Made by a program: the position numbers and the translations under genes. A stretch of DNA of 64,000 nt from the NCBI GenBank assembly GCA_963831755.1, contig CAWHRC010000022.1, forward strand, positions 64,937 through 128,936. The letters run 5' to 3'. Below, one piece after another: positions 2,670-64,000 of this stretch; the stretch's first letter is position 1; every line of letters begins with the position of its first letter. Source of the stretch: an uncultured Acidobacteriota bacterium (GTDB lineage: Bacteria; Acidobacteriota; Vicinamibacteria; Fen-336). The notes below the pieces were generated by a model. The model was not told the origin of the DNA. It worked only from the letters and a program-made list of their open reading frames with translations, and did not search any database.

Positions 2670-4514
2670 ATGGCTGAGGCACCCGTCCTTCCCGCGTGGG
2701 CCGAGGAGATGCGCCAGGTCTTCCGCGCCGGCGCGACGAGCCAGTTCGTCCTCCACGGCAACGTCTTCGACCTGGTCCCGGCGCCCGACGGCCAGGGAGG
2801 GACCGCCTGGACCTCGCTTGCCGACTTCCTGACCGGCACCATGTTCCAGCCGTTCGACGTGGTGATCCGCTACGACCGCGGCCGCGGGGTCCGCATCGAG
2901 CCGCCCGACGCGCGCCGGCCCGACGCGTACAAGGGCGTCGAGGAGGTGTTTCGCTTCCTGAAGGGCGTCGACGCCTTTCGCGGGGCGCCGGCCGCCTTCG
3001 ACGCGGTGGCGGACGGCGCCCGCAAGCTCGACCTGCGCAACCAGCTGCCGCGCGACCCGAAGGGCGCGCTCGAGATCGTCGACCGCGTGCTCGCCTTCGC
3101 GCGCCAGCGGCTCAAGGTGCAGGACGGCAAGGCCGTCCCGAGCCCGCTCAAGGTCGCCGTGGTGCTCGACTACGCGCACTTCATCGCGCCACAGGGCGAC
3201 CCGATCTACGTCGCCGACCTCAGCCAGACCCTGATCCAGATCCAGGACTGGGCGGCGAACCCCGACGTCACCAGCTCCTTCGTGGCGACGGTGCTGATCA
3301 CCGAGAACCTGCTCGACCTCAACCGCGCGCTGGTCGAGAGCCCCTACAGCGCGAAGATCAAGATCGACCTGCCCAGCGCCGAGGAGATCCGCGCCTTCGT
3401 CGTCGACCTCGTTCCCGATGTCGCCGAGTTCCAGAAGGCCTCCGAGGTGACCCGCGAGGTGCTGGCGGACAAGCTGGTCGGCCTGTCGCGCGTCGCGATC
3501 CGCTCGCTCGTGAAGCGCGCACTCACCAGCGGCCAGAAGATCAGCGGCGCCTACCTCACGAAGATGAAGAAGGAGTTCATCGAGAAGGAGGCCGCGGGCC
3601 GGCTGGAGTTTCTGGAGTCCACGCGCACGCTCGACGACGTGGCCGGCCACGACCAGGCCAAGGCCTGGCTGCGCGAGGACGCGGTCCTGCTGCGGCGCGG
3701 CCGCACGATGGCGATCCCGATGGGCTACCTGCTCACCGGCCGCATCGGCACCGGCAAGACCTACCTGGTCGAGTGCCTGGCGGGCGAGATCGGCATCCCC
3801 TGCGTCGAGCTCAAGAACTTCCGCGACAAGTGGGTGGGCGCGACCGAGGGCAACCTGGAGAAGGTGTTCTCGATCCTGCACGCGCTGGGCCAGGTGATCG
3901 TCTTCGTCGACGAGGCCGACCAGATGACGGGCAAGCGCGGCGGGGGAGACGGCGACTCCGGCCTCTCCGGCCGCGTCTACGGCATGCTGGCGAAGGAGAT
4001 GTCGGACACGCGGAACCGCGGGAAGATCATCTGGATCTTCGCGACCTCGCGGCCGGACCTGGTCGAGGTCGACCTGAAGCGGCAGGGCCGGCTCGACGTG
4101 CACATCCCGCTGTTCCCGCCGGGTGACGCGGCCGGCCGCGCGGGCCTCTTCGCCGCGATGGCGCACAAGCTCAAGCTGCAGTGCAGGCCCGAGGAGCTGC
4201 CGGCGCTGCCGGACAACGACCAGATCGGCGGTAACGAGATGGAGGGCGTGCTGGTGCGCGCGCTGCGCGAGCGCGAGACGACCCTGGACAGCGAGGAGCG
4301 CGGGTCCGGCAAGGCGGTGCCGCTGCCCGACTGCATCGCGCGCGCGATCGCGGACTTCCGCCCCTCGGCCCACGTGGAGCGGCTCGAGCTGATGGACCTT
4401 CTGGCCGTCAAGGAGTGCACGGACACGCGCTTCCTGCCGGAGCGCTTCCGCACGCGCAGCCTGGCCCAGGTCAACGCCCGGATCGAGCAGCTGAAGGCGG
4501 CGATCGGCGAGTAG
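2670..4514 (+). CDS. AAA+ ATPase: a long non-ATPase N-terminal region plus one classical AAA module
   Basis: Walker A GRIGTGKT and Walker B VIVFVDEADQ, with the sensor/arginine region SRPDLVEVDLKRQGRLD. The N-terminal ~330 aa have no P-loop. Confidence 0.85.
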   Translation: MAEAPVLPAWAEEMRQVFRAGATSQFVLHGNVFDLVPAPDGQGGTAWTSLADFLTGTMFQPFDVVIRYDRGRGVRIEPPDARRPDAYKGVEEVFRFLKGVDAFRGAPAAFDAVADGARKLDLRNQLPRDPKGALEIVDRVLAFARQRLKVQDGKAVPSPLKVAVVLDYAHFIAPQGDPIYVADLSQTLIQIQDWAANPDVTSSFVATVLITENLLDLNRALVESPYSAKIKIDLPSAEEIRAFVVDLVPDVAEFQKASEVTREVLADKLVGLSRVAIRSLVKRALTSGQKISGAYLTKMKKEFIEKEAAGRLEFLESTRTLDDVAGHDQAKAWLREDAVLLRRGRTMAIPMGYLLTGRIGTGKTYLVECLAGEIGIPCVELKNFRDKWVGATEGNLEKVFSILHALGQVIVFVDEADQMTGKRGGGDGDSGLSGRVYGMLAKEMSDTRNRGKIIWIFATSRPDLVEVDLKRQGRLDVHIPLFPPGDAAGRAGLFAAMAHKLKLQCRPEELPALPDNDQIGGNEMEGVLVRALRERETTLDSEERGSGKAVPLPDCIARAIADFRPSAHVERLELMDLLAVKECTDTRFLPERFRTRSLAQVNARIEQLKAAIGE

Positions 4515-60191: not shown

Positions 60192-61244
60192 TCACTCGGT
60201 CGCCGTGACCTTCGCCGCCCGCTCGAAGCGGCCGGCCTCGCGGCCGTCGAGCGCGGCCAGGGCCAGCGTGATCATCTCGACCGGCAGCAGCTCGACCAGC
60301 GGCCGCGCCACGGCCGGCACCGCCGGCAGGCGGAACGGCGGCTCGGGCGCGTCCTCGGCGGCGAGGTACACCCTCGCGCCAGCCGCTCGGGCGTCCGCGA
60401 CCAGCGCCTCGTTGAGAGCCCGCGTGGTCGCGTCGCCCGCGAAGACCAGCAGGAAGACGTCGGCGTCCAGCATCTCCAGCGGCCCGTGGCGGAGCGCGGC
60501 GCTGCCCATGCCCTCGGCCGGGTGGTGTGTCGACTCCTTGGTGATCAGGCCGGCGGTGAAGGCCGCCGCCAGCGACGGCCCGCGCCCGGCGTAGTAGAGG
60601 GCGCGCACGCCGCGCAGCAGCGGGAAGAGCGCCCGGACGTGCTCCCGCCAGCCCGAGAGGTACGCTGCGACGCGCGGGACGGCCTCGAGCAGGACGCTCC
60701 GCACGCCGTCCGCGTCGCCGCCGGCGAGCGTCTCGCCGAGCAGCGCGAGAGCGGCCTGGGCGGCGAGGTATGTCTTGCAGGAGACCGTCGCCTCCTCGCC
60801 GGCGGCTGTCAGCACGACGGCCGTGCTCGCCGCGGCGAGCGGGCTCCCGGCCGTGTTCGTGACGCCGATCGTGTCGACCGAGCGCCCGCGCACGGACTCG
60901 ATCAGCCGCACGATCTCCGCGCTCCGGCCCGACTGGGAGACGAGGACGAGCAGCGTGTCGTCCGTCAGCAAGCCGCGCTGGTAGTGCAGCAGCTCCGACG
61001 ACTCGACCGTCAGCGGCGCGTGGCCTGCGCGCACCAGGCGCAGGTGGAGCGGCGCGAGCCCGTGGTGGGACGAGCCCATGCCGCTCAGCACGAGACGCCG
61101 ATAGTCGCCGTGCGCGAGACGGCGTGCGATCCTGGCGAGAGGCTCGCCCACGGCGAGCTCGCGGAGCGTCCGCTCGAGAGCGCGTGGCTGATCGAGGATG
61201 TCGCGCAGGTAGCCGCCCTCGACGATGTTCAGGCTGTTGGGCAT
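60192..61244 (-). CDS. SIS-domain sugar-phosphate isomerase/aminotransferase-like protein (GlmS C-terminal / AgaS / FrlB-like)
   Basis: Two SIS modules (VLSGMGSSHH; VLVSQSGRSAE). 350 aa with no glutaminase domain. Confidence 0.8.
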   Translation of the reverse strand: MPNSLNIVEGGYLRDILDQPRALERTLRELAVGEPLARIARRLAHGDYRRLVLSGMGSSHHGLAPLHLRLVRAGHAPLTVESSELLHYQRGLLTDDTLLVLVSQSGRSAEIVRLIESVRGRSVDTIGVTNTAGSPLAAASTAVVLTAAGEEATVSCKTYLAAQAALALLGETLAGGDADGVRSVLLEAVPRVAAYLSGWREHVRALFPLLRGVRALYYAGRGPSLAAAFTAGLITKESTHHPAEGMGSAALRHGPLEMLDADVFLLVFAGDATTRALNEALVADARAAGARVYLAAEDAPEPPFRLPAVPAVARPLVELLPVEMITLALAALDGREAGRFERAAKVTATE

Positions 61245-61317
61245 GGACGCTCGCCTGCTCGGCCGGCCTTTTCTCGACGCCGCGGCAGTCTAGCGCGCAG
61301 ACGCTCACGTGTGCGCT

Positions 61318-61347
61318 GACGTTGGCCGGACGTTGGCCGGACGATGG
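61318..61347. repeat. Tandem direct repeat GACGTTGGCCG x2 plus a partial third copy (GACGATGG)
   Basis: Seen directly at 61318-61328, 61329-61339 and 61340-61347, in the intergenic region between the SIS gene and nrdJ. Confidence 0.6.
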
Positions 61348-61544
61348 AATCGTTCGTTCTGGTAGAAGCTTGCTTCGCCAATGATGACAAGAGCGCCACT
61401 TCATCAATCATAACTCACTGTCATCATTGAATAAACGACTCACCTGAGTGGCCAGTTCTCCGGCTGCCTCGCCCACGACAGACGCCCCAAAAGGATCAAA
61501 GCAGCCTGCGCCTTCGACTCGGCCCGTCCCCGTAACTCACTGAC

Positions 61545-61591
61545 CTGCCATATAATGGTGTTGGGCTGGCTAGTACTACTACATGTTGTGT
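61545..61591. promoter_or_regulatory. Two AT-rich partial palindromes about 31 bp apart; candidate tandem NrdR boxes
   Basis: CCATATAATGG (61548-61558) and ACTACATGTTGT (61578-61589). The second matches about 11 of 16 positions of acaCwAtATaTwGtgt; the first matches only about 8 of 16. Both lie just upstream of, or overlapping, the nrdJ promoter. Confidence 0.3.
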
Positions 61592-61598
61592 TTTTCTC

Positions 61599-61627
61599 TT
61601 GACACCCTCCCGGCGCTTCCCGATAAT
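61599..61627 (+). promoter_or_regulatory. Near-consensus sigma-70 promoter for nrdJ
   Basis: TTGACA (61599-61604), a 17-nt spacer, then GATAAT (61622-61627). The nrdJ ATG is about 120 nt downstream. Confidence 0.5.
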
Positions 61628-61746
61628 CGCGGTCGCCGATTCGGCAGAACAGCCCCCGCGCCGGTCGGGCTGGCGAGCGCATCCGCTGGTCGCCGGAGAG
61701 TCGTCGCCAGTTGAGCCCGATTGCCCCGTACAGAGAGGTAGCACCG

Positions 61747-64000
61747 ATGTCGACCCACCCCGTGGAGAACCCGAGAGCAGACTCCCGCGCGGCGCAGCAA
61801 CCCGAAAAACGCGCGGGTCTGGCTTTCAGGCGCCACTTCACGAAGGCGGGACGGCACCCCTACGACGAGGTGACCTGGGAGCTGCGCTCGGCCGTGATCA
61901 ACGACGAGCGGGGCCAGGCCGTCTTCGAGCAGCACGGCGTCGAGGTTCCCAGCTCGTGGAGCCAGACCGCGACCAACATCGTCGCCTCCAAGTACTTCCG
62001 CGGCCAGCTCGGCGCGGAGGACCGCGAGCGCAGCGTGCGCGGCCTGATCTCGCGCGTGGTCGACACGATCCGCGGCTGGGCCGAGGCTCAGGGCTACTTC
62101 GCGACCCCGGAGGACCTGCAGGCCTTCTCCGACGAGCTGGCGCACCTCTTGGTCCAGCAGAAGGCCGCCTTCAACAGCCCAGTCTGGTTCAACGTCGGCA
62201 TCGAGAAGCACCCGCAGTCCTCGGCCTGCTTCATCAACGCCGTCCACGACACGATGGAGTCGATCTTGGGCCTCGCCCGCACCGAGGGCATGCTGTTCAA
62301 GTTCGGCTCGGGCACCGGCTCGAACCTCTCCTCGATCCGCTCCTCGCGCGAGCCGCTGGCCGGCGGCGGCACCGCCTCCGGCCCGGTTTCCTTCATGCGC
62401 GGCTACGACGCCTTCGCCGGCGTGATCAAGAGCGGCGGCAAGACGCGCCGCGCCGCGAAGATGGTGATCCTCAACGCCGACCACCCCGACGTGGTCGAGT
62501 TCGTCAACTGCAAGGCGGACGAGGAGAAGAAGGCCTGGGCGCTGATCGACGCCGGCTACGACGGCGCCTTCAACGTGCGCGGCGGCGCCTACGACTCGGT
62601 GTTCTTCCAGAACGCCAACCACTCGGTGCGCGTCACCGACGAGTTCATGCGCGCGGTGATCGACGACGGCGAGTGGCAGACGAGGTACGTGCTGTCGGGC
62701 GAGCCCTGCGAGCGCTTCCGCGCGCGCGAGCTGATGAAGATGATGGCGGACGCGGCCTGGCAGTGCGGCGACCCGGGCATCCAGTACGACTCGACCGTCA
62801 ACGACTGGCACACCTGCACGAACACGGCTCGCATCAACGGCTCGAACCCGTGCGTCACCGGCGACACGCTCGTGGCCACGGCCGAGGGTTGGCGCCGCAT
62901 CGACTCGCTGGTGGGCAAGACGGCGCGCGTGGTGGGTCTCGACGGCCAGCCGCACGTCGTCACTCGCGTCTTCCCGACCGGCAGGAAGCCGGTCTTCCGG
63001 CTGCGGACCCGCGCCGGCTACGAGCTGCGCCTCACCGCGGACCACAAGGTGTGGACACTCGATCGGGGCGACGTGCCGGCGAGCCGGCTCGAGGCCGGTG
63101 ACCGGCTTCAGCTCCAAGGCCCCGGCTTCGGCCGCCGCGCGCTCGGCGAGCGGCTGGCACTCGCGGTCGGCGTCGCCGTCGGCGACGGCTGCCTGACGCG
63201 TTCCCACGCCTCGGGGCGGACGCAGGAGATCGTGATCCTCACGATGGCGGCCCAGGAGCGGGGAGTGCTCGACCGGATCGCCGGCGTGCTGAACGAGGTG
63301 AAGGCCGAGCGCCGCGCCGTTGGTGCGGCCGGAAACCCCGGGCCCGTGCACGTCACGGCGAAGGGCACCGGCTCGCGCCTCAGCTTCTCGTCGCAGCCCG
63401 TGGTGGACCTCTTCAAGGAGCTCGCCGTCCTCGACGAGGGTAGCCATCGCAAGCGGTTCACGCCGGCGGTGTTCGAGCTCGACAAGGCGTCGATGGCGGG
63501 CCTGCTGCGCGGGCTGTTCACCGCCGACGGGACGGTGGCGAGTTCGAGCAGCGCTTCTCGCTACGTCTCGCTAGAGTCGAGTTCCCTCGATCTCCTTCAG
63601 CAGGTTCAGCTCTTGTTGCTCGGGTTCGGAGTCAAGGCGAGGCTCTACACGAATCGTCGCGGGGGTGTGACCGAACAGCTTCTTCCTGACGGCCGGGGCG
63701 GCGAGCGCACCTATCCCGTGCGCGAGATGCACTCGCTTCGCATCACCCGCACGTCGCGCTTCCTCTTCGAGCGCGAGATCGGCTTCGACCCCGCGAGCCC
63801 CAAGGCCGCGGCACTGCGGGCGATGAACGAGGAGTTCGGCGCCTACCAGGACGAGCTGGTAGACGAGGTTGCGGAGATCGAAGCCCTCGGTGAAGAGGAC
63901 GTCTTCGATCTGACGGAAGCATCCACTAAACACTTCTGCGCCAATGGTTTAGCGGTTCACAACTGCAGCGAGTACATGTTCCTCGACGACACCGCCTGCA
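61747..64000 (+). CDS. nrdJ: Class II (adenosylcobalamin-dependent) ribonucleotide reductase NrdJ, interrupted by an intein; 3' end lies beyond the window
   Basis: The frame is open from the ATG at 61747 to the window end and is absent from the ORF track because there is no stop. Motifs: WSQTATNIVASKYF, SACFI, FKFGSGTGSNLS, FMRGYDAFAGVIKSGGKTRRAAKM, INGSNPC ... SEYMFLDDTAC. Confidence 0.9.
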   Translation, partial: MSTHPVENPRADSRAAQQPEKRAGLAFRRHFTKAGRHPYDEVTWELRSAVINDERGQAVFEQHGVEVPSSWSQTATNIVASKYFRGQLGAEDRERSVRGLISRVVDTIRGWAEAQGYFATPEDLQAFSDELAHLLVQQKAAFNSPVWFNVGIEKHPQSSACFINAVHDTMESILGLARTEGMLFKFGSGTGSNLSSIRSSREPLAGGGTASGPVSFMRGYDAFAGVIKSGGKTRRAAKMVILNADHPDVVEFVNCKADEEKKAWALIDAGYDGAFNVRGGAYDSVFFQNANHSVRVTDEFMRAVIDDGEWQTRYVLSGEPCERFRARELMKMMADAAWQCGDPGIQYDSTVNDWHTCTNTARINGSNPCVTGDTLVATAEGWRRIDSLVGKTARVVGLDGQPHVVTRVFPTGRKPVFRLRTRAGYELRLTADHKVWTLDRGDVPASRLEAGDRLQLQGPGFGRRALGERLALAVGVAVGDGCLTRSHASGRTQEIVILTMAAQERGVLDRIAGVLNEVKAERRAVGAAGNPGPVHVTAKGTGSRLSFSSQPVVDLFKELAVLDEGSHRKRFTPAVFELDKASMAGLLRGLFTADGTVASSSSASRYVSLESSSLDLLQQVQLLLLGFGVKARLYTNRRGGVTEQLLPDGRGGERTYPVREMHSLRITRTSRFLFEREIGFDPASPKAAALRAMNEEFGAYQDELVDEVAEIEALGEEDVFDLTEASTKHFCANGLAVHNCSEYMFLDDTAC
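62851..63963 (+). mobile_element. Intein (371 aa) with a LAGLIDADG homing-endonuclease domain, inserted at the NrdJ NPC|SEY active-site motif
   Basis: Block A CVTGDTLV, block B LTADHKVW, DOD motifs LAVGVAVGDGC and LLRGLFTADGTV, block G GLAVHN followed by a +1 Cys (63964-63966). Boundaries verified against flanking track-ORF frames. Confidence 0.9.

Follow-up and report, generated by a model that had tools for sequence, protein, structure and literature searches.

The 64,000-nt stretch of DNA analysed here (the window, which equals G000:C22:64937-128936 of a soil acidobacterial metagenome-assembled genome, MAG) carries an intein within nrdJ, the gene of a class II (B12-dependent) ribonucleotide reductase (RNR). 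The insert, at positions 62851-63963 of the plus strand, is a canonical class-1 intein, in which a HINT splicing domain holds a nested double-motif LAGLIDADG homing endonuclease. All the hallmarks of an intein and of a double-motif LAGLIDADG endonuclease that are open to in silico inspection were found in the insert. We consider it very probable that this element is a homing intein seated at the thiyl-radical cysteine of NrdJ, that it splices itself out of the reductase and spreads by homing, and that it arrived in this lineage horizontally and fairly recently.

Architecture of the NrdJ intein

The nrdJ open reading frame (ORF) starts at 61747 on the plus strand and runs beyond the window to a position equivalent to about 65655. 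As read from the genome copy, it encodes 1302 amino acids, i.e., a NrdJ of 931 amino acids and an intein of 371. Pfam searches found PF08471 (N-terminal domain of class II RNRs; E 3.8e-21) and PF02867 (RNR barrel; E 4.9e-51) in the N-extein (61747-62850, +), the cysteine-rich C-terminus (CHYCGS...CYRCANCG) was seen by direct reading, and PF12637, the TSCPD/zinc-ribbon tail, is a precomputed annotation on NrdJ relatives. These features identify the host gene as the class II enzyme.

Direct reading of the DNA gives an insert of 1113 nt, or 371 codons, that is in frame and has zero stops. At the N-terminal junction, Pro (CCG, 62848-62850) is followed by Cys1 (TGC, 62851-62853), and at the C-terminal junction the His-Asn pair (CAC AAC, 63958-63963) is followed by Cys+1 (TGC, 63964-63966). 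From there the C-extein, of which the window holds 63964-64000 (+) before the gene continues to about 65655, reads TGC AGC GAG TAC. The protein junctions are ...ARINGSNP/CVTGDT...GLAVHN/CSEYMFLDDTAC (slashes mark the splice points), and the DNA places them exactly where an earlier note on this sequence had put them when it claimed that the element splits the catalytic region. When joined, the flanks read ...INGSNP-CSEYMF..., which restores the N-P-C-x-E radical loop and is identical to the empty site of congeners. The sequence thus puts the insertion directly N-terminal to the thiyl-radical cysteine, and Cys+1 is expected to be splice nucleophile and radical cysteine alike. Ten residues ahead of the junction, at 62818-62820, G000 has a Thr (ACG, in HTC-T-NTARING) at a position that is Pro (CCG/CCC) in 13 of 14 intein-free relatives and in the closest intein-bearing relative.

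The motifs of the intein were assessed in a 121-sequence alignment that consists of the G000 protein and its best 120 relatives, picked by intein similarity. The complete intein (62851-63963, +; Cys1 to His370-Asn371) matches PF14890 (Intein_splicing; E 4.4e-12, 46.5 bits vs a cut-off of 35.8) and PF14528 (LAGLIDADG_3; E 2.3e-16). Splicing block A (62851-62889, +; CVTGDTLVATAEG) opens with CVTGDT, in which Cys1 is the predicted N-terminal nucleophile. Its C1, G4, T10 and G13 are invariant in the 121 sequences, and the block aligns to DnaB mini-intein structures. Block B (63016-63057, +; GYELRLTADHKVWT) holds the TxxH motif as T62-A-D-H65, again with both Thr and His (T430/H433 in P0001 numbering) invariant. 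Blocks F (DVFDLTE..HF) and G (VHN/C) lie at 63859-63963 (+; ...EDVFDLTEASTKHFCANGLAVHN), where D353, H370 and N371 are invariant; VHN/C itself spans 63955-63966, with the terminal His-Asn and then the Cys+1 nucleophile (H738, N739 and C740 in P0001, invariant in all 121). The LAGLIDADG endonuclease domain occupies about residues 95-330 (63133-63840, +). Its first motif (63154-63192, +; LALAVGVAVGDGC; LALAVGVAVGD112GC) carries the acidic D112 (D480 in P0001), which is invariant in the 121-sequence alignment; at two genome loci that are more distant, a Glu stands in its place. The second motif (63502-63537, +; LLRGLFTADGTV; LLRGLFTAD226GTV) carries the acidic D226 (D594), conserved in at least 90% of sequences and invariant in alignment A4. 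The residues invariant in all 121 NrdJ sequences hence include C1, T62, H65, D112, H370, N371 and C+1.

Sequence and profile searches of the PDB matched the N- and C-terminal splicing regions only (DnaB, GyrA, RecA and DnaX mini-inteins), and the endonuclease domain was therefore placed by fold comparison with Foldseek. The AlphaFold2 model, built on a 14-sequence alignment (mean predicted local distance difference test score, pLDDT, 88.6; predicted template modelling score, pTM, 0.88), has two long helices, 100-112 and 212-226, which end at D112 and D226, and its endonuclease core adopts a two-fold, pseudo-symmetric alpha-beta-beta-alpha-beta-beta-alpha layout. In Foldseek the whole model matched the TliVMA, PhoVMA, PI-PfuI, PI-SceI and PI-TkoII inteins (E 1e-13 to 8e-18), and the central domain matched I-DmoI with a template modelling score (TM) of 0.70-0.77 on the target. 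Alignment and model agree that all splicing blocks and both LAGLIDADG motifs with their acidic residues are present, as the earlier note had stated, and its assignment of 62851-63963 to a LAGLIDADG homing-endonuclease intein in NrdJ is borne out by the domain searches, the structure prediction, the 120 allelic relatives and the intein-free orthologues. The same note had named a lineage-specific NrdJ insertion without intein blocks as the scenario that could overturn it. We attach next to no probability to such an insertion domain of 371 amino acids, in favour of which no evidence was found, given that all intein blocks are present and invariant, that Pfam, PDB and Foldseek comparisons assign HINT and LAGLIDADG folds, and that the insert splits a radical-cysteine loop that is contiguous in orthologues.

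No catalytic RNR gene other than the intein-bearing nrdJ was detected in the assembly. In a genome-wide domain search of this MAG, estimated to be 84% complete, PF02867 matched once only, and the class III reductase NrdD gave zero matches. About 155 nt upstream of the nrdJ start, at 61576-61591, lies an NrdR-box-like 16-mer (CTACTACATGTTGTGT) with two mismatches to the consensus; it is the single such match in the 64-kb window, vs 0.14 expected by chance. An Rfam scan of 61200-64000 returned no RNA element above threshold (best asX3, 22.7 bits vs a gathering score of 40).

Allelic relatives and probable acquisition of the intein

At least 1,789 database proteins carry related inteins, in a search limited to the intein part of the full protein. 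The best 120 of these at least 1,789 matches are all NrdJ, the top one 90% identical and the next two 84%. The junction NP/C...HN/CSE is the same in 121 of the 121 aligned NrdJ proteins, with N367-P368-C369 and H738-N739-C740-S741-E742 invariant. Since the junction residues do not vary, we interpret the aligned relatives as allelic inteins of one site. Their named genome hosts are Thermoanaerobaculia, Vicinamibacteria and other Acidobacteriota, Eisenbacteria, Rokubacteria/Methylomirabilota, Chloroflexota, Armatimonadota, Nitrospirota and Latescibacteria. Related inteins were also detected in five IMG/VR viral contigs, and the two in which the junctions were read (L141 and L142) have the same NP/C site, at 42-47% identity; such contigs are a possible vector for spread between phyla.

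Many relatives hold two to four inteins in one nrdJ (P0024, P0028, P0031 and P0117, of 1,900-2,200 amino acids; L017:2401-5004). In the Limnocylindrales locus L017, a second intein upstream ends in ...VSHN/SGGKTRR and a third opens after ...LAPTG/C downstream. In the closest relative contig, L023 (JGI 3300039444), the nrdJ N-extein is interrupted at about 3090-3110 by a stretch of N with a frame break, which splits the gene call in two. We read this as a probable assembly gap and not as biology.

The intein is rare among close relatives of its host. It is absent from all 16 other same-genus genomes (16/16), in which the weak matches represent a different intein, like the one in DnaB described below. 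With the joined exteins as query, an intein-free, contiguous nrdJ was found in 12 same-genus genomes at 88-93% amino-acid identity (query 1-266 matched without a break), and about 40 further genomes of the family or order match likewise without interruption. A full-length homologue of the intein at this site was found in just one of the 60 relatives searched, G024 (69% identity), and G056, of the same class, has related inteins in a multi-intein ORF of 2616 amino acids. In the alignment of empty sites the DNA is nearly invariant over 45 nt downstream of the junction. Outside the window, at G000:C4:184260-185069 (-), the genome carries a second intein in the replicative helicase DnaB (...LSDLRE/CVTGDT...VSHN/SGALEQDADV). 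It is 36% identical to the NrdJ intein, and six other genomes of the genus and one of the family, seven in total, have homologous matches at 29-37% identity.

Within the clade to which the host belongs, the rate of change is 2-3 times higher in the intein than in the extein. The ratio of intein to extein maximum-likelihood distance is 2.1-2.9 between close hosts vs 0.4-0.5 between distant hosts, and the intein distance levels off near 0.7 substitutions per site, whereas exteins differ by up to 1.9. The patchy distribution, together with this plateau against a rising extein distance, argues for a horizontal and fairly recent acquisition of the intein by this lineage. The argument rests on distance ratios and on the patchy distribution, not on a rejected topology. 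In the intein-versus-extein comparison proposed in the earlier note, the distance ratios favour transfer, but the supported branches alone do not break host clades.

Several observations weigh against a recent horizontal arrival. The 120 relatives were selected on intein similarity, which biases the comparison of inteins with exteins toward hosts that are distant yet have similar inteins. Host clade A requires 5 changes on the intein tree, and the starred (well-supported) branches enforce only 1. Besides, no co-conversion tract was seen in the exteins, where sequences next to the junction are at least as close to the empty alleles as those farther away. The AGC codon of Ser+2, which is common to some intein-bearing relatives, was tried as a co-conversion marker and rejected, since the same AGC/TCS polymorphism occurs in intein-free congeners.

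An alternative is an ancient intein, inherited vertically and precisely lost many times elsewhere in the genus and family, for which it speaks that the inteins of close hosts (OWN, P0002-P0004) do track their exteins, that the starred branches of the intein tree do not force host clades to polyphyly, and that precise loss via recombination with empty alleles is an accepted part of the homing cycle. On the other hand, the clean empty sites, seen in at least 12 genomes of the genus and about 40 of the family or order, would demand many independent precise losses. The inteins of distant hosts (extein distance about 1.9) are, at about 0.66-0.70, no more diverged than some from the same clade (0.64-0.67, at an extein distance of 0.2-0.25), and the share of GC-ending codons (GC3) is lower in the intein than in the exteins in most high-GC hosts. 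Vertical inheritance with repeated loss is therefore improbable in our view, and horizontal acquisition remains the explanation that we favour.

Codon usage and the divergent tract

The N-extein and the C-extein have a GC3 of 0.96 and 0.98, the intein one of 0.868 (884 of 901 codons end in G or C in the exteins vs 322 of 371 in the intein; Fisher p = 8e-15), and the intein lies below the exteins in most family members from high-GC hosts. The lower-GC C-terminal third described in the earlier note is real as a shift, from 0.92 before 63570 to 0.77 after it, but it is not uniform. Windowed GC3 has two troughs, at about 63508-63747 (0.70-0.77) and at about 63838-63987 (0.57-0.70), and 63688-63867, between them, stands at 0.93-0.97. 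The note had also taken the low GC as a sign of foreign origin. The intein does appear foreign to the genus by distribution and phylogeny, but its GC3 is ordinary for the genome and no outlier: the median GC3 of long ORFs is 0.90, 35% of long ORFs do not exceed 0.868, and about 8% of 40-codon windows do not exceed 0.70. GC3 as stand-alone proof of foreign origin was thus rejected, and the foreignness of the whole intein to the genus rests on distribution and phylogeny and not on GC. The contrast between intein and exteins arises because the nrdJ exteins carry the extreme bias of a highly expressed gene, a bias that the codon usage of the intein would not yet have reached.

The first trough coincides with a divergent, mosaic tract of lower GC3 (0.65-0.70) at 63535-63681 (+), i.e., residues 229-277 in the second endonuclease half-domain. 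In the comparison with L023, the closest relative, the mismatch rises from 8.5% elsewhere in the intein to 35% within the tract (twice the log-likelihood difference, 2dLL, = 66). Synonymous divergence (dS) is 1.42 inside vs 0.28 outside, and the ratio of nonsynonymous to synonymous divergence (dN/dS) is similar, 0.16 inside vs 0.11 outside. The same segment is also the most divergent one against the next two relatives. We regard the tract as a probable gene-conversion patch from an unsampled allele. Exchange in this region seems to be recurrent, because other close pairs are also more diverged there and the tract of one relative resembles a Thermoanaerobaculia allele. Speaking against a conversion patch, its donor was not found, either in a scan of metagenome contigs with the 89-amino-acid region (80 family members, none above 72% identity) or among the 120 relatives (best identity within the tract 77%), and the divergence may also have come about through locally fast evolution or repeated exchange in the region.

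The recombinant endonuclease module suggested in the earlier note therefore fits one of the low-GC3 patches, the recombination-like tract in the second half-domain, but not the other, which covers splicing blocks F and G and lies outside the endonuclease. This second patch (63859-63963) comprises the last ~40 codons of the intein, with a GC3 of 27/41 vs 233/250 in the rest (p = 7e-6). Its AT-ending codons (in AAT GGT TTA GCG GTT) are common to the closest relatives L023 and L024, which indicates inheritance from a common, less GC-biased ancestor. Low GC3 near the 3' end could instead be functional, with rare codons that slow translation and give the intein time to fold ahead of the C-extein, and the last ~11 codons are indeed low in several hosts (OWN 0.64, L023 0.55, L024 0.36, L011 0.27, L007 and L008 0.73). 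However, the pattern is missing in the close relative L026 (0.91) and in L012-L016, L020 and L021 (0.91-1.00), and the hosts that have it carry closely related inteins with the very same codons, as shared ancestry would give. We consider a functional role of these codons very improbable and retain inheritance as the explanation of the second trough.

Proposed splicing and homing, and comparison with known inteins

Based on these features, we propose the following scheme for the NrdJ intein. The precursor NrdJ would be inactive, its radical loop being split. Cys1 would perform an N-S acyl shift, Cys+1, the future radical cysteine, would perform the trans-thioesterification, and Asn371 would cyclise, so that the intein would be freed and the native NPCSE loop left behind. 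The junction peptide predicted for the spliced product from the joined exteins is ...INGSNPCSEYMF.... We infer that autocatalytic splicing is efficient and yields ligated NrdJ, because the insert parts Asn-Pro from the radical Cys-x-Glu in the sole detected RNR, which would be active only after splicing. The freed intein, or the precursor, would then cut the conserved intein-free nrdJ site in another genome, and repair off the intein-bearing copy would spread the element. The source would be a large allelic pool common to many soil and sediment bacterial phyla and some viral contigs, and since its arrival the intein would have recombined with other alleles, which would have left the ~150-nt divergent tract at 63535-63681. 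That the endonuclease cleaves the intein-free allele site-specifically is suggested by the purifying dN/dS, by the patchy distribution with similarity across phyla and by the conserved DNA of the empty site. It should be considered, as counterweights to this scheme, that splicing and DNA cleavage are both deduced from sequence, fold and purifying selection, and that a further RNR could sit in the part missing from a MAG of an estimated 84% completeness.

Against the three closest relatives, dN/dS is 0.14-0.21 in the N-terminal splicing region, 0.16-0.18 in the endonuclease and 0.06-0.09 in the C-terminal splicing region. Because of the value of 0.16-0.18, the endonuclease appears to have been under purifying selection until recently. 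It is conceivable, although unlikely, that splicing works and the endonuclease is already inactive, in which case the element would be late in the homing cycle, a fixed and immobile passenger. The tract at 63535-63681 falls in the DNA-binding half of the second LAGLIDADG subdomain and is unusually divergent in G000, and the flanks are without the co-conversion signature of a very recent invasion, as such a passenger would have it. However, the two catalytic Asp residues and the two LAGLIDADG helices are preserved, nothing is deleted in comparison with the family, and the dN/dS of the endonuclease resembles that of the splicing domain and is 0.16 even within the divergent tract, which suggests selection until recently. 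An active homing intein is thus the state that we favour.

We also put forward, as conceivable although unlikely, a wider reading in which a single allelic pool in soils and sediments is now homing among phage-like contigs and bacteria of at least eight phyla, and in which short gene-conversion tracts in the second half-domain, such as 63535-63681, swap DNA-contact modules and retune target recognition. As a more speculative addition to it, a disulfide between Cys1 and Cys+1 could make NrdJ maturation redox-conditional, the two cysteines adjoining.

The main value of the finding is one of annotation, i.e., the ORF should be named NrdJ with an intein, and not merely 'LAGLIDADG family homing endonuclease' as in several database relatives. 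The locus is a clean natural example of the homing cycle, with an occupied allele among many empty congeneric alleles and a target that is nearly invariant in DNA. Because the intein appears to be the sole barrier to maturation of the only detected RNR, intein mobility in uncultured soil Acidobacteriota could be tested on this locus, and the intein could supply a new Cys1/Cys+1 splicing domain. The finding leaves what is known of inteins and RNRs as it was: the intein is ordinary, belongs to a well-known kind and sits at the best-known RNR intein site.

Both the kind of intein and its insertion site are already known, since the site directly N-terminal to the thiyl-radical cysteine has been described as the one at which class I/II RNRs most frequently carry contiguous inteins (Dassa et al. 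2009, PMC2677866), and RNR has been listed second in intein richness among bacterial proteins, with hosts that include Acidobacteria (Novikova et al., PMC4760082). The position, which the earlier note had regarded as typical of homing sites, accordingly matches the commonest RNR intein site among those catalogued (PMC2677866). The NrdJ-1 split intein (PDB 8UBS) also has NrdJ as host and interrupts the same NPCSE loop, but it is placed one residue further C-terminal (Dassa et al. 2009, PMC2677866), at NPC/SE with Ser+1. In contrast to the G000 intein, it is naturally split and has a free-standing endonuclease gene with no nested LAGLIDADG (PMC2677866), and the sequence similarity between the two is only marginal (E 0.0055).

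In structure, the best matches to the whole model are PI-SceI and the VMA1 inteins (PDB 1LWS, 1VDE; TliVMA 7QSU; E 8e-18 to 1e-13), the archetype of an intein that both splices and homes. However, their host is the V-ATPase subunit A, their sequence identity is 12-18%, and PI-SceI has an additional DNA-recognition region. PI-PfuI (PDB 1DQ3), from the ribonucleotide reductase of Pyrococcus furiosus, likewise combines a splicing domain with a double-motif LAGLIDADG endonuclease (Foldseek E 1.7e-16, TM 0.65 on the query), but it is larger (454 amino acids), has an extra domain and is only ~14% identical in sequence. With the contiguous RNR (RIR1) inteins of InBase, the G000 intein shares the enzyme family, the NP/C insertion point, the Cys1/Cys+1 nucleophiles and the LAGLIDADG domain nested in HINT. 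It differs from them as another allele and lineage, from a soil acidobacterial MAG, that is at most 90% identical to any protein in the searched collection and has a private divergent tract in the second endonuclease half-domain.

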